Source of the DNA: Planctomycetota bacterium
GTDB taxonomy: Bacteria > Planctomycetota > E44-bin39
DNA length: 64,000 nt
Direction of reading: 5' to 3'
Assembly: GCA_004376375.1 (NCBI GenBank)
Contig: SOJX01000096.1
Location: forward strand, 20,557 to 84,556
Shown here: piece by piece, positions 6,579-57,520 of the stretch
Layout: each line of letters starts with the position of its first letter
Numbering within the stretch: position 1 is the first letter of the stretch
Notes under the pieces: model-generated
What the model saw: the letters and a program-made list of their open reading frames with translations, nothing else
The model's database searches: none
Told to the model about the DNA's origin: nothing
Translations under genes and position numbers: made by a program

Positions 6579-6648
6579 ATTAGTGGTTAGTCGTTTGTCA
6601 ATTTCTAACCAATAAGCACTAACGACTAACAACTAACCACTAACAACT
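6579..6648. repeat. Intergenic palindrome, 16-bp perfect inverted repeat (TTAGTGGTTAGTCGTT / AACGACTAACCACTAA) plus AACTAAC heptad repeats
   Basis: Direct reading of the sequence. Member of the heptad-repeat hairpin family described in the findings. Confidence 0.7.
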
Positions 6649-6771
6649 AACAACAATATAATGTCGGGATAAGACGCGTTTTACAAGTAAATTTCCTTGA
6701 CTTGTATTTACGACGTGGAATAGGATGCGCCAATCATCCATAAGAGTATAATTCAATCCGGGGGAAACGTT

Positions 6772-7188: not shown

Positions 7189-7211
7189 CCCATCGTAGGC
7201 GCGGTACTCCT

Positions 7212-7295
7212 GCCGCGCAATCCATTATGCCCGACAGGAGTGTCGGGCCTACCGGATGCCGCGCAATCCATTATGCCCGACAGGAGTGTCGGGCC
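7212..7295. repeat. REP-like element doublet: two direct copies of a 38-bp unit, each containing the hairpin GCCCGACA-GGAG-TGTCGGGC
   Basis: gccgcgcaatccattatgcccgacaggagtgtcgggcc at 7212-7249 and 7258-7295. A third copy of the hairpin is at 13175-13199. Confidence 0.7.
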
Positions 7296-8699: not shown

Positions 8700-11276
8700 T
8701 TACCTCCCCGTCTCCTTCGGCGGCTCTTCGGGTTTTTTGTCGGCGGGTTTTTGGGATTGTTCGCCGGCTGGCTTTTCTTCGGAAGGTGTCTTTTCCTCAG
8801 GGGCCGCAGGTTTTTCGCCGCCGGCCTTTTTCTCCGGAGCTTCTTCCTCTTTTTCTTTTGGAGCGTGCTTTTCAAGCCACTTGCTTATTACATCGAATAG
8901 CTGTTTCGGCAGGCGGAGTTCCTTCACCGGCGCGGCCTCCGAGTTAATCAGCGCCTCGTTGCCGAATTCGACGGCGTTACGCGTCCAGGTCGGAGCCTGC
9001 TTCGAATCCGGCTCCGAGATAACCAGCCTTGCGTAGTACTGCCAGAGCGCGGCTGTACGTTCAGGATTCGAAGGATAGAGCTTTCGCGCGTTCTGGAGTT
9101 CCGCCACCACCGCCCGGCGGTTTATCCCGAGCCGGATAAGGTCTTCCCTGGAAAGCTTGTCAAGAGCTACATAGCCGGCAAGCGCAAATTTAAACGCATC
9201 GTAATGGAGATTCGGATTAACGCTGAAAAGCTCGTCCTTTCTTTTCTGAAGTTTTGCCATCGCAACGGCGTCATAATCGGCGTCCCACTGGACCAGAGCG
9301 TTATAGAACCGTTCGCGGTAAAAGCGAAAATCCAGCGGATTCAGATTTATGGCTCTGTCAAGCGCCGCATCCGATTTTAGAGCCAGGTCTTTCGCCTTCT
9401 TGTGGTGCAGACGCAGGGCGCTCCGGGCGAGTCGCGTGGGATTCGTCGCGTTCTTGAAAACCATGTCCGCGCGGATAAACCGCATCGTGAAGAGACCCAG
9501 CGCCGCGGTCGCCGCGATAAAAACTATTACAAGTGTATAACGCGCGCCCGTGCCAAGCGGCAGAACGAAAAAGCTCTGCGGTTTCTGGGGCGCGACCGAG
9601 ACGATCGCCAGCGCAGCGACAACAATAAAAGCAAGCTGAACGCCCAGCGAGTAAAAACTGAAATCAACCAGGTTGTGCCAGAGGAACGCGAAAAAAGCGG
9701 CAACCAGCCCGGCGGTGAGCCAGGAATCCTTGAAGAAGAATTGATAACCGGCAATGCCCTCGTCTTTGTCTTTGGGCAGCGGCTCCCTGAAAAGCCAGTT
9801 AACCGGAAGAAGGAGCAGGAAAAATATTATCAGGACCGCAAGTCCGAAGTGCGTATTCATTTCCGTAGCCGGGCTGATGAGGAAACTCGATATCAACGCG
9901 GCAAGCGCGGCGCCGACGCCGATTGATAACACTATGGCCCGGTCATTCCCGAAAATGCTCCGCGTTCGCTCCGCCGGCAGGCGCTCGTGCGGCTCGAACA
10001 CGCGCGTAATTATCGAGGCAAAGAAAAGGAAAAAGAAAAGCAGGCCCGCGGCCCCGAGCTCGGTCCAGAGCTGAATATAAGAATTATGGGTAAGGGTGGA
10101 AGTTTCCGCGCCGGGCGGTTTGTAGATCGAATAGTTGTACTGGTAGTTGCCGCCGCCGACGCCGATCAGCCCGTTTCGTTTTATCATGCGCCCGGCCGTG
10201 CTCCAGTAGCCGTGCCGGACTTTCATGGAAGCTCCCAGCCACGACCCGTCCTTGCTTTTCAGGTTTCCGATGGAAAAAACCACCAGCCCCAGGAACATCG
10301 CGCCCAGAAGGCCGTAGGCATACCAGTCCGCGTGTTTCCTGATCTTCGAGATTATCACAAGGAGCGCAAGCGTACCCAGCCCTATGGCGCAGGCAACTAT
10401 CCCGCCCTTGGAGCGGGAAAGAAGAAGGGCTGACGCGGCAAGAGCGGTGCCGATGCCGGCCGCCGAAAGCCGCACCCAGCGCCAGGTGCCGGAACCCCGC
10501 CGTCTGATTAACTCTGCAACCAGGCCGGCGCCAAGGCACACCCCCATCGCGAGCACGGTGCCCAGGACGTTGGGGTTTTTAAACCACGTATACATGTCGA
10601 ATGCGCGCGCCCGGTCGACCAGGGGCTTTGTGTATATTCCCGCGCCCGCGCGCACATCCGGGCGAAGGCAGAAGTATTCGTAGAGCCCGGCCACCGCCGC
10701 GGCGACGCACGCGGCAAAAACGAGCGCCGCGAGCGCTATACGCACGCGCCGGTCAACGCCCAGATTAACAACGAGAATAAAAACAAGGAGAAACGCCGTT
10801 GCGTGGACGGCAGTATTAAACGCCGGCAGCGCGTAATCGGCGATCGGGACCTGAATCCAGGCAACCAGCGTAAATACGGCGAGAAAAACACCGCTGAGTA
10901 CGCCCGTTTTCAGCAGGCGAATCTCGCGCCGCATAAAGAAAAAAAGGCTCCACAGCGCGGCAGCGACCAGAAGCACAAGGCTTAGCAGGAGGTTTATCGA
11001 AGACAACTGGGGTTTCGTGCCCGTCTCGCTGTAAAATCCCGTTGTAGAATCGAGAATAAGGCTTGAGTGAAAAAACCGCAGAACAAAACCGAAGGCGAGC
11101 ACAACGAGCACGAGCACCAGCAGCCAGCTCTCGGCCTTTGTCTTTACCTCGGCCTGCCCGGCATCGGAGACCGCGGTTGACTTCTTCTGCATCGCATCCG
11201 GCACTGGTGCGGCAGCGTCTGCGTCCCGGCGCTTTTTCTTTTTGCCTTTCTGCCGTTTTCCCCGTTTCCTGGCCAT
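8700..11276 (-). CDS. Polytopic membrane protein of the O-antigen ligase (Wzy_C) family with a C-terminal TPR-like soluble domain
   Basis: 858 aa with more than 10 predicted transmembrane helices. HNSYIQLWTELG matches the Wzy_C/WaaL H-N-x-Y...E signature. The C-terminal ~280 aa are helical-repeat-like with a lysine-rich tail. Confidence 0.6.
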   Translation of the reverse strand: MARKRGKRQKGKKKKRRDADAAAPVPDAMQKKSTAVSDAGQAEVKTKAESWLLVLVLVVLAFGFVLRFFHSSLILDSTTGFYSETGTKPQLSSINLLLSLVLLVAAALWSLFFFMRREIRLLKTGVLSGVFLAVFTLVAWIQVPIADYALPAFNTAVHATAFLLVFILVVNLGVDRRVRIALAALVFAACVAAAVAGLYEYFCLRPDVRAGAGIYTKPLVDRARAFDMYTWFKNPNVLGTVLAMGVCLGAGLVAELIRRRGSGTWRWVRLSAAGIGTALAASALLLSRSKGGIVACAIGLGTLALLVIISKIRKHADWYAYGLLGAMFLGLVVFSIGNLKSKDGSWLGASMKVRHGYWSTAGRMIKRNGLIGVGGGNYQYNYSIYKPPGAETSTLTHNSYIQLWTELGAAGLLFFFLFFASIITRVFEPHERLPAERTRSIFGNDRAIVLSIGVGAALAALISSFLISPATEMNTHFGLAVLIIFFLLLLPVNWLFREPLPKDKDEGIAGYQFFFKDSWLTAGLVAAFFAFLWHNLVDFSFYSLGVQLAFIVVAALAIVSVAPQKPQSFFVLPLGTGARYTLVIVFIAATAALGLFTMRFIRADMVFKNATNPTRLARSALRLHHKKAKDLALKSDAALDRAINLNPLDFRFYRERFYNALVQWDADYDAVAMAKLQKRKDELFSVNPNLHYDAFKFALAGYVALDKLSREDLIRLGINRRAVVAELQNARKLYPSNPERTAALWQYYARLVISEPDSKQAPTWTRNAVEFGNEALINSEAAPVKELRLPKQLFDVISKWLEKHAPKEKEEEAPEKKAGGEKPAAPEEKTPSEEKPAGEQSQKPADKKPEEPPKETGR

Positions 11277-11285
11277 GGTGTCTTT

Positions 11286-11864
11286 CTAACCGGGCTCGAA
11301 CTTACCCTTCAGGAAGTTTGATAACAGATCCCTGCCGACCTCAGTCAGAAACGATTCGGGATGAAACTGGAAGCCTTCGACCGGCAGCGTCCTGTGGCGG
11401 ATTCCCATAAGCTCGTCCCGGTCGGTCCATGCGGTTTTGACAAGCTCGTCCGGCAGCGAGTCCTCTTTAACGATAAGCGAATGGTAGCGCATTGCACGGA
11501 ACGGGCTCTTAATGCCGGAAAAGAGCGAGCGCCCGTCGTGATGAATCATCGATGTCTTGCCGTGCATGAGCCTGTCCGCGCGCACCACCTTCGCGCCCAG
11601 TACGTGCGCAATGCACTGGTGCCCCAGGCAGACGCCGAGTATCGGCAGTTCTCCAATAAACGCTTCGATAATCTCATTCGCATTACCGGTCTCGAGCGGT
11701 GTACAGGGGCCGGGCGAAATAACGAGATGCGTCGGACTCAGCTTCCCGACCTCGCCCGGGGTTATGCGGTCATTGCGCCTGACCACGACTTCCGCGCCCA
11801 GTGTGCCGAAGGCCTGCACGAGGTTATAGGTGAAGGAATCGTAATTATCGATTGTGAGAATCAC
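11286..11864 (-). CDS. Class I glutamine amidotransferase, anthranilate/aminodeoxychorismate synthase component II (TrpG/PabA type)
   Basis: 192 aa with MILTIDNYDSFTYNLVQ, LGVCLGHQ (catalytic Cys) and FHPES blocks typical of TrpG/PabA. Confidence 0.8.
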   Translation of the reverse strand: MILTIDNYDSFTYNLVQAFGTLGAEVVVRRNDRITPGEVGKLSPTHLVISPGPCTPLETGNANEIIEAFIGELPILGVCLGHQCIAHVLGAKVVRADRLMHGKTSMIHHDGRSLFSGIKSPFRAMRYHSLIVKEDSLPDELVKTAWTDRDELMGIRHRTLPVEGFQFHPESFLTEVGRDLLSNFLKGKFEPG

Positions 11865-11954
11865 GGTATTCAGCGGCTCGAAAACAGGTGGAATATTATC
11901 AGAACCGACACGCTAACACACCGTTACATCGAATTCAAGCGAAAATTCATCGCC

Positions 11955-12135
11955 GGAAGCACCACGCCGGAAGGCGTGGTGAACGCCCGGAAGCACCACG
12001 CCGGAAGGCGTGGTGAACGGCAAGGGATCGGGGACATGAAGAATCCGGGACATGTACTTGTTACGTGTCCCGGGATTTTTTCCACGGGGACATGTATCCG
12101 ATTTCGCCTGCGAAATCAGTACGTGTCCCCGGAAG
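11955..12135. repeat. Cluster of GC-rich palindromic repeat units upstream of the island
   Basis: Tandem ggaagcaccacgccggaaggcgtggtgaacg x2, then gggacatgta...tacgtgtccc palindromes. Related to the units at 13130-13250. Confidence 0.6.
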
Positions 12136-12150
12136 GCCGAATAGTAAATA

Positions 12151-12185
12151 TCGCATAAAACAATATTAAATTAGGAACCGTCCCC
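12151..12185. repeat. Left terminal inverted repeat of the AT-rich island
   Basis: atcgcataaa...aaattaggaaccgtcccc. Its reverse complement occurs at 12953-12987. Confidence 0.75.
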
Positions 12186-12408
12186 AGAGATTCAAGTTTA
12201 CATGCGGGATGTAACGATTATAGAAGTATAAACGTTGCGCACTCGAACAATATCATGCACGGATCGATTTGGTTTATAATGATCACGGTGCGAATAGGTG
12301 TCTGTAATGCACGCGCGATTTGCTCTTTTGATAAGAGGTGGTATACTATGGAAAATTTTATGGACACCCTCCTTGAAACACTCGGTTATAGGTATCCCAT
12401 ATTTCTTC

Positions 12409-12925
12409 CTATTTCTTTAAAATTATTTCTTCAGTGTTATTTTTGGGCGACAAGAAATATATATTTTGACTTTCATTATAATATAACTTCTTAATGTCTT
12501 CATTAATAATTAAGTCAAAATCAACCCGAAGATTAGTTATTCCTTTTTTTGCAATACCCTTTACTCCTTCATTGTTGTCATTTGCAAAGCTCATCAACGC
12601 GACTATTTTGAATTTGTGTCTTATATTTGTGATATCTCGAATGGCTTCTACTCGCACAGGAACAGATTTATCAAATCTTAGCGAAGTTAACAAATCGAGC
12701 TTTTTCTTGGGGTCCTCTTCGATTTTCATTATTGCCCTAAGCGCACGTAACCTTAGTTTGTATTCCCTAGAGAGCAAATACTTTCTTATGGTTTTATCAT
12801 CCTCCTTGTCTATTGCGCGCCCAAGCATTTTGCCTTGTATGAATTCTGTATTATAAAAAACGTACCCACTGCACAGCACAACCACAAATAACACTATTAA
12901 TAATAATGTATATCTCTTTTTCATG
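12409..12925 (-). CDS. Cargo ORF of the AT-rich island: N-terminal membrane anchor followed by HEAT/ARM-like helical repeats; function unknown
   Basis: ATG at 12925 with AGGAGA RBS. About 30% GC versus more than 60% in flanking DNA. MKKRYTLLLIVLFVVVL anchor. Confidence 0.5.
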
Positions 12926-12952
12926 CTTTCTCCTCTACTTCTCAAATTCAGG

Positions 12953-12987
12953 GGACGGTTCCTAATTTATTATTGATTTATGCGATT
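12953..12987. repeat. Right terminal inverted repeat of the AT-rich island
   Basis: ggggacggttcctaattt is the perfect reverse complement of 12168-12185. tttatgcgat matches atcgcataaa. Confidence 0.75.
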
Positions 12988-13129
12988 TATTGTGTTATAT
13001 TCCGGGGACTGGAGGTTTTTTGCCAAGGTTTGCCAGAATCATCGTACCCGGTGTTCCTCACCACATTATACAACGCGGCAACCGCCGCCAAAAGACATTT
13101 TTCAGAGAATCCGAGTAAGCTTCAGGGGA

Positions 13130-13250
13130 CACATACCAATTTCGGTAAGCGCGGCACTCTTGCCCCGTGTTTTTATATTGCCCGACAGGAGTGTCGGGGC
13201 TTCCGGGGACACGTACCGATTTCACAAGTGAAATCGGATACATGTCTCCG
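13130..13250. repeat. GC-rich palindromic repeat units (REP hairpin and ggggacacgtaccgatttcac-aa-gtgaaatcggatacatgtctcc) downstream of the island
   Basis: Near-identical, in inverted orientation, to the unit at 12086-12132. Confidence 0.6.
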
Positions 13251-13475
13251 TCTTCACCCGGAAATCGCTTGCAAGGGGGCGAAGGTGGGAGTAGAATTAA
13301 CCAGGAACTGTAAGGCGTAACAAGTGTATTAAAAACAGGGCATTTGGAGCATGTTATTTTGAAGGAAAAAGCCTGAATTCACGTCTTATTATGGGTAGCT
13401 TTTAAGTAGATGTCTTTGTAATCTAGGTATATATACAGTCCGGTCGTCAACATCTTCTAAACGAGGGATAGTAAT

Positions 13476-14870
13476 ATGATTCGCAAACTCCTCCTTTCCG
13501 CATGCATACTTGCGATTGCTCTTGCCTTTTTGCCGCTTGCGCAGGCCAAACTCAGCTCGGCCGAATGGAAGAAAGCCAAGAGCAACCTTGACAAGCTGCT
13601 GAGGGCGGGCGAGGCAGGTAAAGCCCAACTCCCCGACGCGATAAGAAAAGTAGCCGACGACAATTCAGACCGCGCAGTCAAACTGCTGCTCACAGTCGGG
13701 CTGAGGGTTGAAGACTCCGCGGTATATGAAGCGACAAAGTCCGCGCTCTCCTCGATAACGGACCCCAAGGGAATGAAGGCTATCCGCAAGGAGCTCGAGC
13801 GCAAGAGCGACAAGAACTGGCGGATAAAGGTAATACTCGTCGAAGTCGTCGCCCGCATGCTGGGACGCGAGAAAATCAGGATAATATCCGACATCGCCGC
13901 GAACGAGACCAAGCAGGAAGTGCTTCGCGCGGTAATAAGGGCATGCAGAATCATCGACACCAAGGAAGTGATTTCCCCGCTGATCGAGCTGGTGAGGCGT
14001 TTCGAGAAGCTCAAAGGCAGCGTATGGATGGACTCCCGCGACGCGCTGTTCGCCATCACGGGCGGCGAAGATTTCGACTGCGCCGCAGACTGGAAACAGT
14101 GGTGGGACGGCGAGAAGGCAACCTGGAAAAAACCAAGCGAGGAAGATAAGGAAAAAGAAGAATCGGGCGCAAAAGGGGAGTCAGAGGGTTACAGGACGTC
14201 CCCGCGCAAGGCGCCGAGATTTTTCGGCACCGAAGTCACTTCAAAGCTTGTCGTTTTCGTGCTCGATACATCCGGCTCGATGAAGATCAAAGACCCCGGT
14301 GAAAACCCCGAAGATGAAGATGAAAAACCCGACACGCGAACAACCGCGGACCCGAAAAAGAAAAAGCAAAGCGGAGGCGGCGGCAAGGCGGGGAAGCAGA
14401 AACTGCCCGACCACCGGATGAGGGTAAAACGCGCCCAGAAAGAACTTATTAAGTGCATAAAAGCCCTGGATCCCAACGTGGAATTCAACATAGTTACCTA
14501 CGACTCAACCACAACTACATGGAGCAGGTCTGGCCTCAAGGTCGCGAGCGCTGCAAACAAGAAAGACGCTATCAAATACGTCAAGAACTTTCAGCCCAAA
14601 GCCACGACCCACACCGATGACGCCATCATCCGCGCGTTCAAGGAAAACCCGAAGGCCGACACCCTGATTTTGCTCTCCGACGGCTGGCCGACCCACAAAG
14701 GCGATAACAGCGACTGCAAGGAGATTATCGACCGCATCTGGAAGTTTCTGGCAAAAGCCAACAAGTTCCGCCGCGTCAGAATATTCACATTCGGCTTTGT
14801 AGACGCCCACCGCGCATTCATGGTGGAGCTGGCACGCAAGAACGGCGGCAAGTACAAAGATATCAAGTAG
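13476..14870 (+). CDS. Secreted protein with N-terminal HEAT-like repeats and a C-terminal von Willebrand factor A (vWA) domain
   Basis: Signal peptide. VVFVLDTSGSM MIDAS motif (DxSGS). 464 aa. Confidence 0.65.
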   Translation: MIRKLLLSACILAIALAFLPLAQAKLSSAEWKKAKSNLDKLLRAGEAGKAQLPDAIRKVADDNSDRAVKLLLTVGLRVEDSAVYEATKSALSSITDPKGMKAIRKELERKSDKNWRIKVILVEVVARMLGREKIRIISDIAANETKQEVLRAVIRACRIIDTKEVISPLIELVRRFEKLKGSVWMDSRDALFAITGGEDFDCAADWKQWWDGEKATWKKPSEEDKEKEESGAKGESEGYRTSPRKAPRFFGTEVTSKLVVFVLDTSGSMKIKDPGENPEDEDEKPDTRTTADPKKKKQSGGGGKAGKQKLPDHRMRVKRAQKELIKCIKALDPNVEFNIVTYDSTTTTWSRSGLKVASAANKKDAIKYVKNFQPKATTHTDDAIIRAFKENPKADTLILLSDGWPTHKGDNSDCKEIIDRIWKFLAKANKFRRVRIFTFGFVDAHRAFMVELARKNGGKYKDIK

Positions 14871-15014
14871 TTATCGCCCCGGGCCCGAAATGTAACGTTT
14901 ATGTAATACCTTCAAAGGCGGCATTTTTCACTACATTATTCCCCTTTTTAATCGTATAATTCCTAGAGGGAAAAGGTAAATATCTGCCGTATTCGAATAT
15001 CAAGGAGATATAAA

Positions 15015-15746
15015 ATGCGCGTACAAAAAAACCTCCAGTTTCTGCTTGGAGTAGCTATCCTTGCAATGGGCATAGTTCTTCTTATGACCCCATGCGCAAC
15101 AGGGTGAGGCGGCGGTGGAGCCCGGCGTCCGCCGTCGCGGCCGCCAGTAAGCCCGCCTCCAGGAGGAGGAGGACAACCCAGCAGCACACCCGACAGTCAA
15201 TGGCCCGAACCTGACCACGCACCACCGCCATCCACCGACGAAGACAAAAGTGGTGACAAAAGCGACGAAGGCGGTTCGAAAAGCAAAGTAACAAAGAAAC
15301 CCAAGGTGACCATCTTCGACGAGTTCGAAGGACTTGACAGCAAACGCGAAGATAAGCCCGTCATTTTCTTCTTCTACATCGAGGCCACGTCGCAGAAAGA
15401 CCGCAGCAAGCCGGTGCTGAATTCTCAACAGATGGCCAGGATGCTTGCGCACCCGAAAGTTTCCAATCAATTGAGCGAGTTCAGCTGCTACCGGCGCAAT
15501 TACAAAAAGACCAAGAAGGCCATTCGTAAGAAGTACAAGGTCAAGACCGCGCCGATGCTTGTCGTATTCGACGCCACCGGCAAGGTGATCTTCAGGACTA
15601 CGAGCTTCAAGATCAAGCCTGAAAGACTGGTGGCAACGCTCAAGAAGCTGGTCAAGAAATCTGAAAAGAATCTTGAGAAGTTCCAGAAGAAGCGCGAAAA
15701 GGATGAAGAAAAAGCTGCAAAAAAAGCTGAGAAAGAAAACGAATAA
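15015..15746 (+). CDS. Trx-fold paralog 0: signal peptide, in-frame TGA (15105-15107), Gly/Pro linker, thioredoxin-like domain, Lys-rich tail
   Basis: ATG at 15015 after GGAGA. MRVQKNLQFLLGVAILAMGIVLLMTPCATG-[TGA]-GGGGARRPPSRPP... continues in frame into the table ORF 15306..15746. Confidence 0.5.
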
Positions 15747-15772
15747 CAATTTACGACCCGACTGAACTAATG

Positions 15773-15805
15773 CTGAGCCCGGTCAAAGCCGGGCTCAGTT
15801 TCTTT
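15773..15805 (+). terminator. Rho-independent terminator after paralog 0
   Basis: ctgagcccggtcaaagccgggctcag hairpin followed by a T-rich run. Confidence 0.6.
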
Positions 15806-16009
15806 AATTGCCTTTTACATTACACAATCTGATTCTTCCACATAACTTACTGAGGTCAGCATAGATATACGCGCTGCTTCATTCCGTTGCCCCAGGCGTG
15901 AAAAGCCGGACTGGAAAGTCTGTCTATTTATGCCCTAAATGTCCTTTTACCGGCGCAATACAATAACTGTCACGTTTTTGTAATAATTGGATACAAATGT
16001 AATTCAAGC

Positions 16010-16038
16010 TTGTCATAGCAGAATTTCCGGGATATAAT
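16010..16038 (+). promoter_or_regulatory. Sigma70-like promoter of paralog 1 (TTGTCA-17-TATAAT)
   Basis: TTGTCA at 16010-16015, TATAAT at 16033-16038. Conserved TTTTGTAATAA box 24 nt upstream (15976-15986). Confidence 0.5.
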
Positions 16039-16129
16039 AGGAACAGATAAGGGAAGAAAGGTGTAAGGTTATATAGATGGTTTGATCTATGGCTCCGTTC
16101 GCCGAAGAACGGCCATGGAGGGAGGACCA

Positions 16130-17017
16130 ATGCAACGCACACTAGTTTTATTTATCGCGGCCCTGGCCATCACTGTTATGGCCCTGGACCTTCCCGCATA
16201 TTGCTGAGGTGGCGGAGGAGGATCGCGACCGCCGGCGCGGCCGCCAGCAAGACCGCCGACTCCACCTCCGGCACCGCCTCCGCGTCCGCCGAGTACGCCA
16301 CCGCCGAGCACACCGAGACCGCCGAGTACGCCACCGCCGAGCACGCCGACTCCGCCGAGGACGCCGACTCCGCCTCCAAGGCTGTCGACGCCTATTCCGC
16401 CAAGAGCTCCTGTAACGCTCGGCTGGCCGGAAGCGAAGCCGGTAGCGAACCCGACGCCGAAGAACGAGCCGACCATTACCGGCCGCGGCATCTTCGGTAA
16501 AAAGGACGGCAAAGCGGGAAAAGCGGAAAAATCGGCGAACAAGGTTATCGTCAAAAAGAAGGTGAAAATAACCTGCTTCGACGACTTCGACGCGCTGAAG
16601 GGCAAGGAAGAGAACAAGCCGGTCGTCATTTTCGTGTACTGGCCCGACAGGACCGACGACGCCGGCCGCACCTCAAAGCTCTATGCAAACTGCCAGAAGA
16701 TGATTGAAGTCCTTGCCAACGCGGACGTGCAATCCGCGCTGAGACAGTGTCAGTGCTACAAAGTGAATTTCCAGGGGCTTGACAAATCGCGCCGCAAACG
16801 TTACGGCGTGAAATCCGTACCGACGCTGCTCTTCATCGACGCAACCGGCAAGGTTCTCAAGAGACTTACATCACCGCGGATAAAACCCGCGAGCCTGGTT
16901 CGGCTGATACTGACCGTCGTCAAGAAGTCGGACAAGAACATGGAGAAGCTCGAGAAGAAGCGCGAAAGAGCCGCGGAAAAGGCAGCGGAAAAGGCAGCGG
17001 AAAAGGAGCGATCTTAG
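16130..17017 (+). CDS. Trx-fold paralog 1 with in-frame TGA at 16205-16207
   Basis: GGAGGGAGG RBS. MQRTLVLFIAALAITVMALDLPAYC-[TGA]-GGGGGSRPPARPP... No in-frame ATG for 357 nt after the TGA, yet that stretch is conserved at protein level with the other copies. In frame with table ORF 16562..17017. Confidence 0.55.
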
Positions 17018-17065
17018 CGCCGACACTCGGCGGCCTCTGAACAGGCTGCAACTTTACCGGAACCG

Positions 17066-17097
17066 AAAGCCCGGGATTTATCCCGGGCTTTATTTTT
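17066..17097 (+). terminator. Rho-independent terminator after paralog 1
   Basis: aaagcccgggatttatcccgggcttt followed by ATTTTTGG. Confidence 0.65.
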
Positions 17098-17177
17098 GGC
17101 CTCTCCAAGGCCCGAAAATCGCATTATTTGCCTTGTGTAACAGTTTTGTAATAACAGATAATACTGCCCTAACTTAC

Positions 17178-17206
17178 TTGCATCCCGGCCCGCCATGTCT
17201 TAAAAT
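17178..17206 (+). promoter_or_regulatory. Sigma70-like promoter of paralog 2 (TTGCAT-17-TAAAAT)
   Basis: TTGCAT at 17178-17183, TAAAAT at 17201-17206. TTTTGTAATAA box at 17144-17154. Confidence 0.5.
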
Positions 17207-17261
17207 ACAGTGACAGCTAAAAGGTATATTACGAACCAGAGTCCGATAAGAAGGAGAACTT

Positions 17262-18074
17262 ATGAAAAAGCTGCCAATAATATTTATTGCTGCGCTGGCC
17301 ATCACCGTAATGGCCCTGGACCTTCCCGCATACTGCTGAGGCGGCGGAGGAGGATCGCGGCCGCCGGCGCGGCCGCCTGCAAGACCGCCGACACCAAGAC
17401 CGCCATCAAATCCCGGTGGTAACCCGGGTGGCAGTAATCCGGGTGGTGGAGGCACGCCAATGGTACCTACGGGTTCTAAACCGAGTATCAATTGGCCGGA
17501 AGCCAAACCAGTCGCCAACCCGACTCCCAAATCCGAGCCCACGACCACGGGCAGAGGGATTCTCGGGAAAAAAGACGACAAAACTGACGAGAAATCCGGC
17601 TCCAAAGTCATCGTCACCAAGAAGCCGAAAATTACCTGCTTCGACGACTTTGACGCGCTGAAGGGCAAGGAAGAGAACAAGCCAGTTGCCATTTTCGTGT
17701 ACTGGCCGGACCGGACAAACTCAAAAGGCCAGACGTCGAAGGCGTACCAGAACAGTCAGAAGATGATTGACCTCCTTGCCAAGTCTGCGGTTCAGTCGGC
17801 CTTCCGCGAGCTTAACTGCTACAAGGTGAACTACAAGTCGCTCGACAAGTCGCGCCTCAAACGCTACGGCGTGAGAGGCGCGCCGACGCTGCTCTTCATC
17901 GACGCGACCGGCAAGGTTCTCAAGAGAATCACCTCTTCGCGGATCAAGGCTGCAAGTCTTGTGAAACTGATCAAGACCGTTGTCAAGAAATCAGACAAGA
18001 ACCTTAAAAGGCTTCAGAAGAAGCGCGAAAAGGCAGAAGAGAAAAAAGCAAAAGAGGAAGAAGAGAAGAAATAA
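17262..18074 (+). CDS. Trx-fold paralog 2 with in-frame TGA at 17337-17339
   Basis: AAGGAGA RBS. MKKLPIIFIAALAITVMALDLPAYC-[TGA]-GGGGGSRPPARPP... In frame with table ORF 17460..18074. Confidence 0.55.
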
Positions 18075-20309: not shown

Positions 20310-21401
20310 TCAATAGCGCAGCAGGGCTGCGATATTGCCGACTTCGGTCAGGCCCGGAATCGGGTCGACGAAGTCCGCTTCCGCACCGGATGATGCGAGC
20401 AACTCGATTATCTCGTTGACAAGGTCGATTTTAAAAATTGACTGCGAGCCGCATTTGGAACAGGCCGCATGCGCTCCCTCGTCCAGATGATCGCAGTCGC
20501 GGCAGCGGATGCCGTCTATCCGAACATCGCGGCTGACGACAACCTTGCTGACCCGCCCCGCTTTCGCCGCGTCGAGCACGTCCGCGGCGCCGACGGTTGC
20601 CTTGCCTTTACGACAGTATTCGTTCCTGATCCGCTCCCAGAGCCTTTCTTCGGAGCGGCGTTCCTCGTCGAAGTACAGGTCGAATATTTCCCGGTTGATA
20701 CAATGCTCGCCTTCGGACAGGTTCATGGCCTTTTCGCCGACAAGTTTCCTGGCGAGATGGGCCGGAAGCACCCGCTTGATTTCAGCCAGCGTTTCCCTCG
20801 ACCCGGCCATAAGGATGCGGCGGAAGCTCTCGCTCCGGTCCAGTTCCTTAAGCCTGTCGACGATATCCTTGGCGTAATGATGAAGCTGTTTGTCGCGCCT
20901 GCGCTCGTAGCGCTGCTGCGACCAGCCGCCTTTCCGCACGTGGTTTTTTATATTCCCCCTGACTCGCTCCTCGGACTCGGCCTTCGCGGACACGACCAGA
21001 TAAATGCGGGCGGATTTATTGTCGGCGACGACCACCGCGAAATTCTCGTATTCGTCCTGCAGTTCGGCCAGCGGACGGATATAGGGCGAGGAATCAACGA
21101 TTAATAAATCGGGCATATCTACTTCAATCGGAAAGGCCTTGAAATAATCCAGCGCCCAGCAGGCGAAAATGCATATCCCGCCGGACTCGACCGGATTCTT
21201 CTTCAGGTATTTTTCCACAAGCTCGATGTTCTCATCGAAGTATTCCGCTTCGTCCCTGTTATCCCGTAAAAGAGAGCGCGTGTTCCCGATGCGCTTCCCC
21301 AGCGATTCCAGCGCTCCGGCATCGGAAAGGTAGAGGCTCAGAAACGCGCGGTCCGGCGCCGTTACTTTCGCCAATTCGCGCAGGTTGATTTTGTCGAACA
21401 T
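20310..21401 (-). CDS. Hypothetical protein, tentatively eRF1/Pelota-like (bacterial aeRF1-type), with a C-terminal C4 zinc ribbon
   Basis: 363 aa. Central KGGWSQQRYERRRD loop reminiscent of the eRF1/Dom34 central-domain loop. C-terminal CRDCDH...CSKCGS zinc ribbon. Assignment is by motif impression only. Confidence 0.3.
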   Translation of the reverse strand: MFDKINLRELAKVTAPDRAFLSLYLSDAGALESLGKRIGNTRSLLRDNRDEAEYFDENIELVEKYLKKNPVESGGICIFACWALDYFKAFPIEVDMPDLLIVDSSPYIRPLAELQDEYENFAVVVADNKSARIYLVVSAKAESEERVRGNIKNHVRKGGWSQQRYERRRDKQLHHYAKDIVDRLKELDRSESFRRILMAGSRETLAEIKRVLPAHLARKLVGEKAMNLSEGEHCINREIFDLYFDEERRSEERLWERIRNEYCRKGKATVGAADVLDAAKAGRVSKVVVSRDVRIDGIRCRDCDHLDEGAHAACSKCGSQSIFKIDLVNEIIELLASSGAEADFVDPIPGLTEVGNIAALLRY

Positions 21402-21464: not shown

Positions 21465-21590
21465 AGCGAAGCGACGTAGCAATCTCAGACTAGGTTACAG
21501 GTTACAGGTTACAGGTATCAGAATATATTTTTTACCTGTTACCTGTCACCTGTTACCTGATTTGTCGGCAGCTTTGCTACCTCCTCGCAA
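21465..21590. repeat. Nested intergenic palindrome built on GGTTACA heptad repeats
   Basis: Inner arms CAGGTTACAGGTTACAGGTA / TACCTGTTACCTGTCACCTGTTACCTG. Outer arms ttgcgaggag...gtagcaa / ttgctacctcctcgcaa. Confidence 0.7.
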
Positions 21591-21634: not shown

Positions 21635-22219
21635 TTATCTCCTCAGTTCTTTCCATGTCTTTCCGCCGTTGGCGCGGATGAAATCTGCAATCGCTTCGTG
21701 CCGCAATAACTGCGCCCAGTCAAGGGGCGCACATCCGAATTCGTCTTTTGTATTGATGTCGGCCTTCATTCTTACCAGCGACTCAACAAGGTCCTTGTTT
21801 TTTTCCCGTATCGCCCAGAACAGCGGCGTCCAGTCGTCTTCATCTCTCGCGTCTATTTCCGCGCCTTTGTCGATCAGCAGCATCGCAACGTCATTCCATT
21901 TATTCCTTGCGGCCAGGTGCAGGGGGAAGCTCTTAAACATGCTCTTTGGCACCAGGGTGTTGACATGTTCCCAGTGTTCTGCCAGGAATTCCGCTGCCTT
22001 CTCGCCGCCTTCCAGTTCCCCCGCCAGCACATCGAAGCCTTTCCTGCCTTTGCCGAGCAGCCAGCTGACGGATTTCACCCTCTCTTTCGCGTCATTGGAA
22101 TGCAGACAGGAGGCGTTCCACAATATTCTCACCGGCGTCCACAGCAGGCAGGTCGCTATCACGGCCGCGAAAAGCAGGACGACGAAGATAGTGAGCTTGA
22201 GAGGCAGCGAAAGCTTCAT
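21635..22219 (-). CDS. Ankyrin-repeat protein with N-terminal signal/anchor
   Basis: Three or four ankyrin repeats (LHLAARNKWNDVAMLLIDKGAEIDARDEDDWTPLFWAIREKNKDLVESLV...). The N-terminal 19 aa are nearly identical to those of the 19284..20276 gene. Confidence 0.65.
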   Translation of the reverse strand: MKLSLPLKLTIFVVLLFAAVIATCLLWTPVRILWNASCLHSNDAKERVKSVSWLLGKGRKGFDVLAGELEGGEKAAEFLAEHWEHVNTLVPKSMFKSFPLHLAARNKWNDVAMLLIDKGAEIDARDEDDWTPLFWAIREKNKDLVESLVRMKADINTKDEFGCAPLDWAQLLRHEAIADFIRANGGKTWKELRR

Positions 22220-23725: not shown

Positions 23726-24523
23726 ATGCAAAAACTGCTTACCACATTCCTGCTCGCTATGTGTGCAGTCGGATTTGCCTTGGACAATGTGGCCTATGCT
23801 GCCGGCGGCTGTTGAGGCGGCGGTGGCACTCCGCGGCCGCCGGCGCGGCCACCTACGACTCCAAGACCGCCTGCAGGAAATCCCGGGAACCCCGGTACTC
23901 CCAGTACGGGAACTCCCATTCAGCCTCGTACGCCCGCAGAACTCAGCTGGCCTGAGGCCAAACCCGTTGCCGAATCGACCCCTGAAGTTGAGCCCACAAC
24001 TACGGGCAAGGGAATTCTCGGTAAAAAGGACGACAAGGGCAAAACGGCTGAAGGGGAAAAATCCGGCAACAAGGTCGTCGTTAAAAAGCGAGAAAAACCC
24101 ACCTGCTTCGACGACTTCGACGCGCTGAAAGGGAAGGAAGAAAATAAACCTGTCCTCCTTTTCGTGTACTGGCCTGACATGAAGGATTCCAAAGGCCGCA
24201 CTTCGAAGGCCTACGAGAACTGCCGGAAGATGATTGAACTCCTTGCCAGGTCGTCGGTCCAGTCAGCCCTCGAAAAGATAGACTGTTACAAAGTCAACTA
24301 CAAGTCGCTCGACAAGGCGCGCCTCAAACGCTACGGCGTGAAAGGCACGCCGACGCTGATTTTCATCGACGCGACCGGCAAGGTGCTCAAGAGGATCACG
24401 TCTCCGCGGATAAAGCCGTCAAACCTTATCCGGTTGATTAAGACCATCGTCAAGAAATCGGACAGGAACCTGGAGAAGCTTCAGAAGAAGCGCGAGAAGG
24501 AAGAGGAAAAGCAGTCCAAGTAA
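23726..24523 (+). CDS. Trx-fold paralog 3 with in-frame TGA at 23813-23815
   Basis: MQKLLTTFLLAMCAVGFALDNVAYAAGGC-[TGA]-GGGGTPRPPARPP... In frame with table ORF 24164..24523. Confidence 0.55.
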
Positions 24524-24578
24524 GGCGATAAAGGCGAGTTTGCAGCCATAACAGACTACCAATAAAAGGGAGATTCCA

Positions 24579-25397
24579 ATGCGAAAACTGCTTATCCCGT
24601 TTGTACTCGCCTTATGCATAGTCGGATTTGCAGTAGATGATGTGACGCATGCATGCGACACCTGCGGCTGCGGTAAAAAAGGGCCTTGCGGTCCGAGCGG
24701 TGGCGGTGGCGGTGGTTGCTGAGGCAGCGGCGGCACTTCGAAGCCGCCGGTAGCTGGGCCTACCGGTAAAAACTCTCAGCCCGACAAGCCCATTGGCATC
24801 CCGTGGCCGGATGCAAAACCGGCATCTGAAGAAACGGTCACCGGCAAAGAAATCCTCAAGAAGAAAGACGACAAGGCCGCGGCCGGCAAAACCGATACCG
24901 GCAAAAACGCGGCAGAAAAGGGCGGAACCGACCCGAAAAAGGCGACCTGTTTCAACGACTTCGACGCGCTCAAAGGCAAGGAGTTGAAAAAGCCGATCCT
25001 TCTCTATTTCTACTGGCCCGAGGACAAGGCTTCGAAAAGCCGGGCGCAATACCGCGATTGTCAGAAGATGAACAAACTGCTTTTCGAGGACCCGGACGTC
25101 AAGGATGAACTTTCCAAACTCGATTGCTACAAGGTTAACCTGTCCATACTGAGTAAAGAGCTCAAGAAACAGTACAAGATTAAGAGCGCGCCGACGCTGA
25201 TCTTCATCGACCCGACCGGAAAGGTGCTCAAGAAAAGCTCTTCAACCAGGACAAAACCTTCGAGAATGGTCCGCCTGATAAAGTCGGTCGTCAAAGCCTC
25301 CGCCCGCAACCTGAAGCGGTACAAGAAAAAACTGGCGCAGGAAGAGAAAAAGGAAAAACCGCAGGCAAAGGAGGAAGACGAAGCCAAGGCCAAATGA
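24579..25397 (+). CDS. Trx-fold paralog 4 with in-frame TGA at 24720-24722; extra Cys cluster before the TGA; probably co-transcribed with paralog 3
   Basis: GGGAGA RBS. ...HACDTCGCGKKGPCGPSGGGGGGC-[TGA]-GSGG... In frame with table ORF 24984..25397. No separate promoter in the 55-nt gap after paralog 3. This copy ends with TGA. Confidence 0.5.
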
Positions 25398-29235: not shown

Positions 29236-31368
<2,133 letters not shown>

Positions 31369-31871: not shown

Positions 31872-32582
31872 ATGCGCAAATCTCCAATCTTGGTCCTGGC
31901 AATAATCTTATCCGTTTCAGTAGCTTTCTCCATTAACTGCGGCGGCAGCGGCGGGGGAACGAAAATCGTCTACCCGAGCACGAACACCGGCACGGGCACG
32001 ACGGGAACCGGAACCGGCACAGATACCGGGACCGGCACGGGAACCGGAACGACAACTTCCACAAATACTCTCCGGGTAGAACTCGGTCCCAACAATCCCG
32101 GCGGAAAAATGACCTGGCAATTGCCGGACACGGGAACGTTCGACTGCTGCCTGCTTCAATTCAGGTTCGAGGCAATTGGCGGTAACGTCAGCGTTATCTC
32201 GATGGTGGTCACTGATACCGGAGACGGAAGCCTGACCAATGGAATCGCGATGAAATGTAACGTCTGGGAAGACATAGGCGACTGTGCGGGAAAGTGGGAC
32301 CCAAGCGACGTAAGGGTAGCAAACGACGTTGCCTGGGACGACACGCGAACAGTAACGATTACATTCACCACTCCTATTAAACTTGAAAACCTCGTACGAA
32401 GAACTTTTATTATCTGTTACAAGGTAATATGTCCCAATTATTCACTGGATCCTCTCTACTATCAGGCGGTAATCCCTGTTGATCAGATTGACGCCGTGGA
32501 AACAGGCGGGTCTCTGAAAGTACCAACCGATCCGCCTAGCGGCAACATAACCGGCCAGCAAACCTTATTTGCGCCCATTTGA
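31872..32582 (+). CDS. Paralogous smaller lipoprotein with a Gly-Thr linker and a C-terminal domain related to that of 29236..31368
   Basis: Lipobox [33 protein letters not shown] linker (DNA array 31984-32056). 236 aa. Confidence 0.55.
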   Translation: MRKSPILVLAIILSVSVAFSINCGGSGGGTKIVYPSTNTGTGTTGTGTGTDTGTGTGTGTTTSTNTLRVELGPNNPGGKMTWQLPDTGTFDCCLLQFRFEAIGGNVSVISMVVTDTGDGSLTNGIAMKCNVWEDIGDCAGKWDPSDVRVANDVAWDDTRTVTITFTTPIKLENLVRRTFIICYKVICPNYSLDPLYYQAVIPVDQIDAVETGGSLKVPTDPPSGNITGQQTLFAPI

Positions 32583-37230: not shown

Positions 37231-37266
37231 AACCGAAGAACCGAACAACCGAACAACCGAATAACT
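37231..37266. repeat. (G/C)AACCGAA tandem repeat upstream of the 37270 gene
   Basis: aaccgaagaaccgaacaaccgaacaaccgaataac. Confidence 0.5.
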
Positions 37267-37269: not shown

Positions 37270-37656
37270 ATGTTTCTAGCCTATCTCGGACTGACCGCCG
37301 TCATTATCCTCTGCACGCTCGCCGTCTGGGAAGCGCGCCGCAAGTTCGGCAACAGCGGAATCGAAGTTCCCATCATCGGGGCCATCGTATGGTTCCTCAT
37401 GACGGTTGGATTTCTCGTACACGCGGTCTCCATGCCGCCGGCGGTAAAGGAAAAGGAAGAACCCGTCAATATCCAGGAAAGAACACTGCCGAAGACGGAC
37501 CGCTCGGCAAATCCAAGAGGCGTTTTCCATCCTCCAAAAATGAAACGGCGGCCCGGTCGAAAGCCCCGGGGGGATGAGTTTGAAGAAGAGGACATGTTCG
37601 GCGGCGAGCCCGAAAATCTGTTTCCCCCGGGAGGGGAAAACAGATCCAACCGCTGA
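37270..37656 (+). CDS. Small membrane protein, hypothetical
   Basis: Two transmembrane helices then a basic/acidic tail. 128 aa. Confidence 0.4.
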   Translation: MFLAYLGLTAVIILCTLAVWEARRKFGNSGIEVPIIGAIVWFLMTVGFLVHAVSMPPAVKEKEEPVNIQERTLPKTDRSANPRGVFHPPKMKRRPGRKPRGDEFEEEDMFGGEPENLFPPGGENRSNR

Positions 37657-37840
37657 AGAAAGTATGAAGTATGAAGGCTGAAGTATGAATTAAGAATATT
37701 TATTTTATAATCCGTCCTTCATCTTTAAAGAACTCGCCGAGCAAACCGGTCTGGTTGCGCTCGGCGGCTAATTATTATATTATTAGCATATTCTTCTTTT
37801 CATCCTTCATACTTCATCCTTCATACTTTCTTCATACTTT
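37655..37840. repeat. Pair of inverted GTATGAA(G) heptad arrays flanking an AT-rich spacer
   Basis: gaagaaagtatgaagtatgaaggctgaagtatgaa... and ...tcatccttcatacttcatccttcatactttcttcatacttt. Confidence 0.65.
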
Positions 37841-37854
37841 TTCCAACAGCCCTG

Positions 37855-37948: not shown

Positions 37949-38881
37949 ATGCGCAAGATTGCAGTAATAAATCAAAAAGGCGGCGTCGGCAAAACAACTA
38001 CCGTCGTAAACCTCGCCGCGGCTCTGGCAAGAATGGGGCAGCGCGTCCTGGCCTTGGACATTGATCCCCAGGCAAACCTTTCGGTCCACCTGAACATCGA
38101 CGTTGCCACCGCCGAGCGAACTATATACGAAGTCCTGAGCGGAACATTTTCCCTCACCGACGTAATCCAGACTCTGCCCGACGAGGGATTCGATATGGTC
38201 TCATCGAACATCGACCTTGCCGGCGCGGAGATAGAGCTCGTCAGCCAGATGGGCCGCGAAACCATACTGCGGGACGCCGTGGATGCGCTTTGCAAATCGT
38301 CGCCCGATTATGATTTCCTGATTATAGACTGCCCGCCCTCGCTCGGTCTGCTCACGATCAACTCGCTCACGGCCGTACGCGAGCTTTTCATTCCGCTGCA
38401 GGTCCAGTTCTTCGCGCTGCAGGGCGTAACCAAGCTGCTGGAAATCGCAAACCTTGTCCGGAGCCGCCTGAACCCGGACCTTGAAATCACCGGCATCATT
38501 CCGCAAATGTTCGACCAGCGCACCAAGCTCTCCCATGAAGTGCTCGAGGAGATACATACCTTTTTCAAAAACACGGTTACAAACACCGTTGTGCGGTCGA
38601 ACATCCGGCTGGCGGAAGCGCCGTCGCACGGGAAGTCGATCTTTCGCCACGCCCCCTCCTCCTTCGGCGCGGCAGACTACCAGGCGCTGGCCGAGGAAGT
38701 CCTGAACATGGTTCCGCAGGAGAGAGTCTATCAGATGCCGGAGATACCCGAGCTCCCGCCGGAGCCGGCCGCTGAACAGACGCAGAAATCCGAGGAGCCG
38801 CCCGCCGAGGGGCCGCCCTCCGAGGAGCCGAAAGACAAGCAGCTTGAGGTCGAAGAAACCTTCATGAAGCATGAAGTATGA
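37949..38881 (+). CDS. ParA/Soj-family P-loop ATPase with a Pro/Glu-rich C-terminal extension
   Basis: KGGVGKTT deviant Walker A. ParA blocks throughout. About 60-aa acidic/Pro-rich tail. TGA stop at 38879-38881. Confidence 0.85.
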   Translation: MRKIAVINQKGGVGKTTTVVNLAAALARMGQRVLALDIDPQANLSVHLNIDVATAERTIYEVLSGTFSLTDVIQTLPDEGFDMVSSNIDLAGAEIELVSQMGRETILRDAVDALCKSSPDYDFLIIDCPPSLGLLTINSLTAVRELFIPLQVQFFALQGVTKLLEIANLVRSRLNPDLEITGIIPQMFDQRTKLSHEVLEEIHTFFKNTVTNTVVRSNIRLAEAPSHGKSIFRHAPSSFGAADYQALAEEVLNMVPQERVYQMPEIPELPPEPAAEQTQKSEEPPAEGPPSEEPKDKQLEVEETFMKHEV

Positions 38882-38924
38882 AGAACAAAAAATAAAATCT
38901 CAGCCTTCATACTTCATGCTTCAT
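38863..38924. repeat. Perfect 21-bp inverted repeat (CATGAAGCATGAAGTATGAAG / CTTCATACTTCATGCTTCATG) overlapping the parA stop
   Basis: Direct reading. A-rich loop. Followed by CCTTATC tandem repeats. Confidence 0.7.
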
Positions 38925-38967
38925 CCTTACTCCTTATCCCTTATCCTGTTATGCACTCGTTTTTCGC

Positions 38968-40347: not shown

Positions 40348-40374
40348 TAAGGCTTGAGACTTGAGGCCTGAGAA

Positions 40375-40476
40375 TTTTCGATTTACGATTTTCGATTGTC
40401 GATTTCGGATCGAATTTAACCGCTGAGCCGCAGTGAAATATTTGAACCGAAGAACCGAACAACTGAAGAACCGAAG
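40375..40476. repeat. TTTCGAT heptad array followed by a GAACCGAA array
   Basis: ttttcgatttacgattttcgattgtcgatttcggatcgaa ... gaaccgaagaaccgaacaactgaagaaccgaag. Confidence 0.6.
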
Positions 40477-43273: not shown

Positions 43274-43356
43274 CAGGTTTCAGGCGTCAGGTTTTAGGTA
43301 TCAGGTTTTAGGTGTTAGGTTATTATTTTCTTATGCCTGAAACCTGATACCTATTA
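43274..43356. repeat. Intergenic palindrome built on CAGGTTT/AGGTWTC heptad-like repeats
   Basis: caggtttcaggcgtcaggttttaggtatcaggttttaggtgttagg...gcctgaaacctgatacct. Confidence 0.65.
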
Positions 43357-44280: not shown

Positions 44281-44385
44281 TATTTAGTGCTTCTTACTTG
44301 GTTCTTGGTTCTTGGTTCTTGGTTCTTGGTTCTTGGTACTTGGTACTTGGTACTTGGTACTTGGTACTTGGTACTTCTTATCACG
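44281..44385. repeat. Tandem heptad array (GGTTCTT)x5 then (GGTACTT)x6 ending GGTACTTCTTA
   Basis: Direct reading. Generates spurious ORFs in three frames. Confidence 0.8.
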
Positions 44386-57418: not shown

Positions 57419-57520
57419 GGTCCAGAATACCCGGTACCCGGTACTCGGTACTCGGGACTCGGTACTCGGTACTCGGTACTCGGTACTCGGTACTCGGTAC
57501 TCGGTACTCGGTACTTCTTA
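57419..57520. repeat. (CGGTACT)x11 tandem heptad array ending GGTACTTCTTA
   Basis: Same unit and same terminal motif as the arrays at 44281-44385 and 44560-44650. Confidence 0.8.

Follow-up and report, generated by a model that had tools for sequence, protein, structure and literature searches.

Probable remains of a RAYT group 1/TIRYT transposase locus with foreign AT-rich DNA between inverted repeats in a Planctomycetota genome

Repeat-flanked Y1 transposases and the trpG-vWA spacer

Among the Y1 transposase genes related to the REP-associated tyrosine transposases (RAYTs; REP, repetitive extragenic palindrome), those named TIRtrons or TIRYT have long terminal inverted repeats on both sides (Di Nocera et al. 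2013, PMC3733652), with the consensus GGGG[AT][CG]A[CG], or GGGGWSAS (PMC3733652, PMC6006769). These repeats also form dimers, and DNA gets inserted between the dimer partners (Di Nocera et al. 2013, PMC3733652). The TIRYT genes have been equated with subclass 2.1 of TnpA-REP and with RAYT group 1 of Bertels (Quentin et al. 2018, PMC6006769), which shows the distribution most like that of insertion sequences (ISs) when group 6, clustering within IS200, is left aside (Bertels et al. 2017, PMC5581495); a near-identical duplicate is present on the same replicon for 6.3% of group 1 RAYTs, and some of them are located on plasmids (PMC5581495). The present study concerns a locus in a stretch of 64,000 nucleotides from a Planctomycetota bacterium (GenBank assembly GCA_004376375.1, contig SOJX01000096.1, positions 20,557 to 84,556), hereafter the window, in which two inverted repeats, the arms, bound an AT-rich island carrying a single 171-aa gene, next to a short piece of a Y1 transposase gene. 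The arms are best explained as the GGGGAC-headed terminal repeat, present in two inverted copies, of a dead Y1 (HUH) transposase locus of RAYT group 1 / subclass 2.1. A probability of roughly 0.6 is assigned to the reading of the whole as a decayed RAYT group 1/TIRYT locus within a cluster of GGGGAC hairpins, with foreign AT-rich DNA lying between two head-to-head terminal repeats.

Other described systems resemble this locus in part. In REPINs, RAYTs mobilise REPs arranged as doublets (Bertels and Rainey 2011, PMC3337134, PMC3116915), with spacers of 34-110 bp that keep a hairpin (PMC3337134). Each REP of such a doublet is an imperfect palindrome, and REPINs number tens to hundreds per genome. 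As in REPINs and REPtrons, two inverted transposase-associated repeats stand here beside a RAYT-family gene, and true palindromes (hairpins A and B) are clustered nearby; however, the spacer of 759 nt is protein-coding and the arms are not palindromes themselves. Mobile insertion cassettes (MICs) hold passenger genes between IS-type inverted repeats and have no transposase (PMC4337579), MIC231 of Bacillus cereus, listed among its references, being an example. The Planctomycetota locus shares with MICs the terminal inverted repeats round one passenger gene, the lack of a transposase inside, and arms related to those of a transposase gene. Nevertheless, MICs present target-site duplications, several copies and the ends of DDE-type ISs, whereas this locus has no duplication and no second copy in the DNA searched, its associated enzyme is a single-strand Y1 transposase, and the orientation of its repeats leaves the gene outside the transposase unit. 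The ends of IS200/IS605 elements, whose transposase-less derivatives are the PATEs, are asymmetric hairpins in the same orientation, without long terminal inverted repeats. Membership of the Y1_Tnp superfamily and the subterminal hairpins A and B at the edges of a 1.17-kb block are points of likeness, and the locus differs in having no tnpB and no definable characteristic target tetranucleotide.

Arms, transposase remnant and island

The arms (Table 1) are complementary at 36 of their 39 positions and share the exact 18-mer core GGGGACGGTTCCTAATTT, besides exact 10-mers at their outer ends (12150-12159 and 12977-12986). When up to three mismatches were allowed, this core was found at two sites in the 64 kb, both of them the arms, against 0.06 expected from shuffles. 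The arm pair and the 55-nt pair formed by hairpins A and B are the longest inverted repeats of the window. Gapped alignment lengthens the arms to ~66-68 nt (53/68 identical), with a second GGGGAC at the end of each extended arm. Neither arm folds on its own (DNA folding z 0.0 and 0.6, as compared with about -5 for hairpins A and B), and thus they fit terminal inverted repeats and not REP hairpins. A first-pass annotation of the window was right in placing inverted repeats at the island ends, although its coordinates were 1-2 nt off, in locating them between a GATase (trpG/pabA-type) gene and a vWA gene, and in noticing the flanking GC-rich palindromes (folding z -4.8 to -5.2).

The same annotation recorded no transposase, which is true inside the repeat, but the right arm is abutted by the apparent beginning of a Y1/HUH tyrosine transposase gene. 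This gene was cut after codon 32, ahead of the C-terminal helix-turn-helix extension that TIRYT transposases carry, its HUH and Tyr motifs are gone, and its reading frame is interrupted by a GGGGAC-headed half unit (13119-13143). A tblastn search of plasmids with the 32-aa peptide returned seven records, six of which were annotated as 'transposase'. Four of the hits were inspected, and in all of them the match began at the first codon of the gene, which was an annotated transposase coding sequence in three cases and an unannotated stretch in one. The homologue from R. rubrum belongs to Pfam Y1_Tnp (E 1.1e-11) and scored 77 bits with the NCBIfam model 'REP-associated tyrosine transposase', whose cut-off is 80. 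Used as a query, it found 13020-13115 with 50% identity over residues 1-32 (E 1.9e-5 over all DNA compared and 9.6e-8 within the region). The N-terminus of the remnant is of the PGVPxHxxQRG type that is common to plasmid-borne members. When two full-length RAYT-family queries were run by tblastn on 11900-13400, only the N-terminal 32 residues were found, so that the remainder of the transposase gene is not hidden in the island.

The right arm reads GGGGAC... toward the remnant, with its head 69 nt and its second GGGGAC head 16 nt before the remnant start. At 69 nt, it matches both the orientation and the position of the upstream terminal repeat in intact loci. In the four comparator loci, without exception, the upstream arm reads GGGG[AT]C... 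or GGGTC... toward the gene. The R. rubrum locus has a 19-nt perfect inverted repeat headed GGGGTCAG, with arms 747 nt apart; in Pseudoalteromonas, a 19-nt perfect inverted repeat headed GGGTCAGAG has its arms 767 nt apart; and a 38-nt inverted repeat (95%) headed GGGGACAG, with arms 731 / 807 nt apart, was found in P. aeruginosa. From head to start, 49 nt were counted in R. rubrum, ~73 nt in Pseudoalteromonas, and both 76 and 153 nt in P. aeruginosa. A Clostridiales locus presents the same arm orientation, with the head farther upstream than in the plasmid loci.

When one genome per GTDB species was searched with the 18-mer, a single Clostridiales metagenome-assembled genome (MAG; CROMO_A_104, L005, L006 and L008) accounted for three hits, and a further hit, inside a cyanobacterial gene, was judged to be due to chance. 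In that MAG, the 18-mer represents one of the variants of the repeat unit GGGGACGGTTC[CT][CT]..TTGCA, and the units form 58-nt inverted repeats, 90% complementary and 1001 nt apart, that enclose an intact Y1_Tnp gene of 261 aa, whose C-terminal helix-turn-helix is weak. A metagenome scan with the motif recovered the same Clostridiales contigs and two unrelated contigs with inverted pairs, in one of which the motif heads face inward across a 20-nt spacer (L013, 3957-4012), and in the other outward (L016, 2047-2109). The 18-mer is thereby known as inverted pairs from four unrelated lineages, once around an intact RAYT-family gene, which suggests that the enzyme may recognise a longer sequence than the 8-mer GGGG[AT][CG]A[CG] of the literature.

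Two observations were made alongside. Inverted pairs of GGGGACGGTTCC[TC][AG]ATTT occur in four unrelated lineages with GC contents of 47%-70%, one pair flanking an intact RAYT-family gene. Also, an uncalled stretch that matches the start of a Y1/RAYT-family gene is found in plasmid pTHAF3_a of Pseudoalteromonas sp. THAF3 (~663.5-664.4 kb; L021:1425-2337), where it is accompanied by one upstream and four inverted downstream copies of AAAGGGTCAGAGTTGTTGA.

In relation to TIRtrons/TIRYT, the likeness of the Planctomycetota locus lies in the GGGGAC-headed and non-folding repeats, in the upstream repeat reading toward the start codon, in the occurrence of repeat copies as dimers and clusters, and in an arm spacing of 759 nt as compared with 731-1001 nt in the four intact loci. 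The differences are that the transposase is represented by 32 codons only and that the inverted partner lies upstream, the pair enclosing a foreign HEAT-like gene and not the transposase. The surroundings are rich in the same motif, in that 9 of the 17 GGGGAC/GTCCCC sites of the 64 kb fall within 12030-13250, and the adjacent hairpin units GGGGACAC agree with the published consensus at 8/8 positions.

The interior between the arms is compositionally foreign DNA. The repeat-bounded unit of 837 nt has 35% GC, in a window whose mean is 54% (sd 5.5%), and the lowest-GC 400-nt stretch of the 64 kb starts at 12398 (31.8%). The gene itself has 33% GC and a GC3 of 35%, as compared with 52-62% GC and a GC3 of 55-80% in most other long open reading frames (ORFs) of the window. 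The whole 1.2-kb block has 40% GC and the transposase remnant 48.5%, window genes having typically 57%. The island is thus the most AT-rich part of the window, as had been noted at first pass, but the remainder does not average above 60% GC as then stated. No similarity was found for 12193-12408 in any of the searches made, for 12140-13130 by blastn against plasmids and phages, or for 11000-14500 in an Rfam scan at E<=1.

The single inward ORF of the island, with its AGGAGA ribosome-binding site (12929-12934, four bases before the ATG), was borne out. Of 5000 dinucleotide shuffles of the island, a single one contained an ORF of at least 171 codons, and the ORF is therefore very unlikely to be a chance reading frame. 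Its product has a basic N-terminus followed by ~20 hydrophobic residues (by inspection), modelled as one long helix, which is predicted to be a membrane anchor. Among 5.8 billion protein clusters, no homologue was found besides its own record, a hypothetical protein of a Planctomycetota MAG on a 132-kb contig of a third assembly. With HMMER, 13 weak matches were obtained among 1.84 billion representatives (E 3.5e-12 to 8.5e-4), all of them long multi-repeat proteins, and the five that were scanned with Pfam were all HEAT_2 arrays. Pfam HEAT_2 scored 17.8 bits on the ORF, below its cut-off of 27.7, and NCBIfam HEAT-type lyase models gave E values of 1.5e-4 and 5e-4, far under their cut-offs. 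Alignment with HEAT segments revealed three clear L..LL.D....VR..A..AL repeats. From that alignment, AlphaFold returned a model with a pLDDT of 79.8 and four helical hairpins stacked in the manner of an alpha-solenoid within residues 43-149, which, as the alignment was built from HEAT segments, is not independent proof of a HEAT fold; the single-sequence model (pLDDT 45.8) was unusable. The best structure matches of the model in the PDB were alphaRep, CpcE/F and PP2A-A (prob 1.0, TM ~0.5, E 0.008-0.1), and a PDB sequence search gave only noise (E ~0.4). These models support a membrane-anchored HEAT-like repeat protein, in keeping with the membrane anchor and HEAT-like repeats first proposed for it. 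PADLOC and PHROGs returned no defence-system or phage family for this protein. An origin as a local paralogue of the neighbouring vWA protein was rejected, the ORF having no similarity to the HEAT-containing N-terminus of the latter.

The AT-rich tail of the right arm contains divergent promoter-like hexamers (12998..12969 on the minus strand and 12973..13001 on the plus strand), and the 171-aa gene is probably transcribed from this tail, toward trpG. Promoter and terminator scans of the region gave counts not above those of shuffles.

Relatives, order of events and alternative origins

The two closest relatives available, L010 and L011, carry orthologues of the vWA protein with 91% and 83% identity, respectively, and in both of them the hairpin-arm-island-remnant complex of ~1.2-1.3 kb is missing. 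The trpG-vWA spacer measures 342 nt in L010 and 405 nt in L011, as compared with 1611 nt in the window. Homology with L010 ends at 11954 and restarts at 13256, with 25 unrelated nucleotides between, and that with L011 reaches 11976 and restarts at 13143. L011 keeps one left hairpin unit, the two-hairpin element and one GGGGACACGTACC hairpin, and its junction lies in a 9-nt near-repeat (CGGAAGGCG / CGGTAAGCG), which is compatible with a deletion by microhomology. The indel edges, 11955/13255 for L010 and 11977/13142 for L011, differ from the repeat ends at 12150 and 12986, the indels also taking in hairpins and the transposase remnant. On this comparison, the island and the remnant are specific to the source lineage.

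The assembly of the locus is supported by the NCBI MAG contig and a k-mer contig of run SRR7716471, both identical to the window. The four matching records (L001-L004) are base-for-base identical to it and were not taken as independent strains; they confirm the assembly only. The k-mer contig (L002) spans 11990-16618, crosses both arm boundaries and breaks only at locally repeated sequences. Logan contigs are built from a k=31 graph, and on that basis the unbroken contig would argue against a second near-identical unit in the SRR7716471 data. No second copy of an arm or of the cargo was found in the 64 kb.

In canonical loci, the transposase unit has a repeat head at each of its outer ends. 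In the window, the downstream side of the remnant bears GGGGAC units in the same orientation and hairpin B, and the sole inverted arm copy (12150-12188) lies upstream of the remnant, across the island. Consequently, the heads face each other and the island is outside the transposase unit. The left arm is read as a further copy of the transposase-associated terminal repeat, inverted and orphaned, and the geometry of the arms is that of a head-to-head dimer, as in the metagenome contig L013, but with ~750 nt at its centre. The ancestral state would have been a tight head-to-head repeat dimer just upstream of the transposase gene, as suggested by the dimer with the same 18-mer and a 20-nt spacer in that unrelated contig. 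Foreign DNA may then have been captured at the centre of the dimer palindrome, where a site prone to cruciform formation could have undergone break repair, or where the transposase could have cleaved single strands at the repeat heads and rejoined them. In another scenario, a small gene would have been acquired earlier, and repeat copies settled on both of its sides. With the transposase dead, the structure could now move only if another part of the genome encoded a cognate enzyme. It is described as a lineage-specific intergenic scar and not as a demonstrated mobile cassette.

Other routes to this topology were considered and rejected. An inversion between hairpins A and B would not move the remnant inside the arms, and a circle junction or a permuted element is not supported, since no 3' part of the transposase is present left of the left arm. 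An integron gene cassette, in which one attC-type imperfect palindrome lies 3' of a promoterless ORF and successive sites have a direct orientation, was discarded, as the arms are inverted copies that are not self-complementary, and the R-box (GTTRRRY) of integron attC was not seen in them by inspection.

Several findings weigh against a decayed RAYT group 1/TIRYT locus. The homology of the remnant comprises 32 residues with 16 identities; no Pfam or NCBIfam model scored the fragment, and a word-indexed protein search with its 42-aa ORF gave no candidate sharing three 5-mers. The inverted partner repeat expected downstream of the transposase gene is not there, and the arm core GGGGACGG agrees with the published consensus at 7/8 positions, deviating at one. 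The 759-nt spacing equals that of intact loci, which the proposed order of events leaves unexplained and which is treated as a coincidence. Searches of one genome per GTDB species, 241 million metagenome records and viral contigs, collections outside which the source genome lies, gave no copy of the extended arm or of the cargo. Finally, the lack of the island in relatives may reflect an insertion in the source lineage or deletion in the relatives, and since L010, the nearest relative, is without elements that are common to the window and L011, at least one deletion happened.

The first-pass annotation had considered the 837-nt unit to be a non-autonomous element resembling a miniature inverted-repeat transposable element (MITE), or else a horizontally acquired cassette. 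A form of the former, a MITE/MIC-like or REPIN-with-cargo cassette mobilised in trans by a Y1/RAYT-type enzyme encoded elsewhere, is unlikely, although several observations speak for it: the terminal inverted repeats are real and long, they enclose one foreign gene as passenger and no transposase, relatives have an empty site, and the arms belong to a transposase-associated repeat type. Besides, group 1 is the most IS-like group remaining in the RAYT clade (PMC5581495), and MICs are an established concept in other IS families (PMC4337579). However, no target-site duplication or other direct repeat was found outside the arms, whose flanks read ...AATAGTAAAT (GTAAAT) on the left and TTATTGTGTT (TTATTG)... 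on the right, and the indel edges with respect to both relatives lie outside the arms, so that they do not mark out the 837-nt unit as the one that moved. Similarly, the terminus had no other copy in the 64 kb or the three DNA collections described above, the cargo had no homologue in protein cluster searches, and the k-mer contig passes through both arm boundaries unbroken, which would argue, from the way Logan contigs are built, against a second near-identical copy. The heads face inward, contrary to those of the four intact loci, which leaves the island outside the transposase unit and not as cargo in it; the arms belong to the GGGGAC-headed repeats found around RAYT group 1/TIRYT genes and are no anonymous MITE ends. 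The acquired cassette was the better half of that interpretation.

A more specific version, in which a RAYT group 1/TIRYT repeat pair carries a protein-coding passenger that is excised and re-inserted by a Y1 transposase encoded elsewhere, is given a slim chance. If true, this would be the first element with cargo in the RAYT world and a route for orphan genes into intergenic repeat clusters.

It is similarly improbable that the locus is a composite remnant, in which two transposase copies in direct orientation once bracketed the AT-rich gene and were imported together with it, the left copy having decayed to its downstream repeat (the left arm) and the right one to its upstream repeat plus 32 codons. 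Such an origin explains the inward heads without a pre-existing dimer, and the GC contents of the block and the remnant, both below that of window genes, fit a joint import; the same-replicon duplicates and plasmid location known for group 1 RAYTs (PMC5581495) also point in this direction. On the other hand, no trace of a second transposase is present left of the left arm, where hairpin A follows at 11 nt and tblastn revealed one N-terminal fragment in the region, two independent large deletions would be needed, and transposition of RAYT-type elements is undocumented (PMC3337134).

Least probable is that no mobile-element scar exists and that the structure is a local palindrome regulating the divergent trpG and vWA promoters, or a chimeric assembly artefact, since, even though it lies in a divergent promoter region, has a single known copy and metagenome misjoins can create inverted repeats, the complex sits between promoter-proximal segments of 90 nt (11865-11954) and 220 nt (13256-13475) conserved in L010 (93% and 89%), relatives do without it and it is thus not needed for trpG/vWA regulation, the same sequence stands in the NCBI MAG contig and in an independent k-mer contig and the protein is also known from the third assembly, and the native hairpins around the arms, of which L011 has one as well, have the same GGGGAC head as the arms.

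Neighbouring repeats and implications for annotation

The features of the decayed locus and of the hairpin cluster around it are gathered in Table 1. Hairpin A is the inverted partner of hairpin B (89%), and the only such hairpin in L011 matches it in reverse orientation with 92% identity.

Table 1. Features of the trpG-vWA spacer in window coordinates
Feature	Coordinates	Strand	Description
Tandem hairpin units	11953..12019	+	Two exact 33/34-nt units, CACCACGCC-GGAA-GGCGTGGTG; folding z -5.2; left copy partly common to L011
Degenerate small hairpin	12029..12075	+	GGGGAC/GGGAC-headed (12044-12074), then T-run
Hairpin A	12084..12138	.	GGGGACAYGTAYC-headed palindrome; folding z -4.8
Left arm	12150..12188	-	39-nt inverted repeat; core 12168-12185; extended arm 12125-12192
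Non-coding island interior	12193..12408	.	40% GC
Orphan gene, 171 aa	12409..12924	-	Predicted membrane anchor and 3-4 HEAT-like helical hairpins
Right arm	12948..12986	+	39-nt inverted repeat; core 12951-12968; extended arm 12944-13009, second GGGGAC 13004-13009
Y1/HUH tyrosine transposase remnant	13020..13118	+	TTG start, GGAGG 13011-13015, 32 codons LPRFARIIVPGVPHHIIQRGNRRQKTFFRESE, stop
Half hairpin unit	13119..13143	+	CTTCAGGGGACACATACCAATTTCG; cuts short the transposase frame
Two-hairpin element	13144..13200	+	GCGCGGCAC..GCC.. / GCCCGACAGGAGTGTCGGG; small dispersed family
Hairpin B	13197..13251	.	GGGGACACGTACC-headed palindrome; common to L011; folding z -5.1

The two-hairpin element belongs to a palindromic repeat family separate from the GGGGAC units, GGCGCGGyACTyyTGCCGCGC-N10-GCCCGACAGGAGTGTCGGG, which is also found at 7200-7295 (with an exact tandem at 7211-7295), L010:6393-6411 and L011:469-487, and is thereby conserved in two related genomes. 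The window further contains many intergenic tandem arrays of 7-8-nt units (e.g., TACTTGG x11.7, TACTCGG x12.6 and AACCGAAC x4), at 6605-6654, 21492-21516, 37231-37265, 37654-37850, 38864-38936, 40374-40476, 43274-43321, 44295-44376, 44561-44647 and 57428-57515, which is unusual for a bacterial genome. One inverted set of these arrays surrounds the gene at 37949..38881 (37654-37850 and 38864-38936), and another lies 13 kb apart (44561-44593 and 57442-57509).

As for the genes, at least five paralogous small thioredoxin-like genes, with 300-nt DNA repeats of 66-79% identity, are located downstream of the vWA gene (15306-18074 and 24056-25241). An eRF1-like gene (baeRF/acVLRF1-type) and an ankyrin-repeat gene were identified by Pfam side by side at 20310-21401 and 21635-22219, both on the minus strand. 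Two neighbouring large genes contain coding repeats with a 12/18-nt period (29317-29532 and 31989-32068), whose units, such as GGAACCGGCACT, encode Gly/Thr-rich linkers.

The kind of element recognised here is already known, and the trpG-vWA locus would be a degenerate member of it with an unusual arrangement. The position of foreign coding DNA exactly between head-to-head transposase-associated repeats could serve to test palindromic dimers as capture sites of horizontally acquired genes, and a longer recognition sequence would matter because the DNA substrates of this enzyme class are still undefined, neither point being established here. For annotation, what appears to be a MITE with cargo may be the wreck of a RAYT-type transposase locus, which is diagnosed by its 32-codon remnant and its GGGGAC repeats, both of them missed by gene callers.

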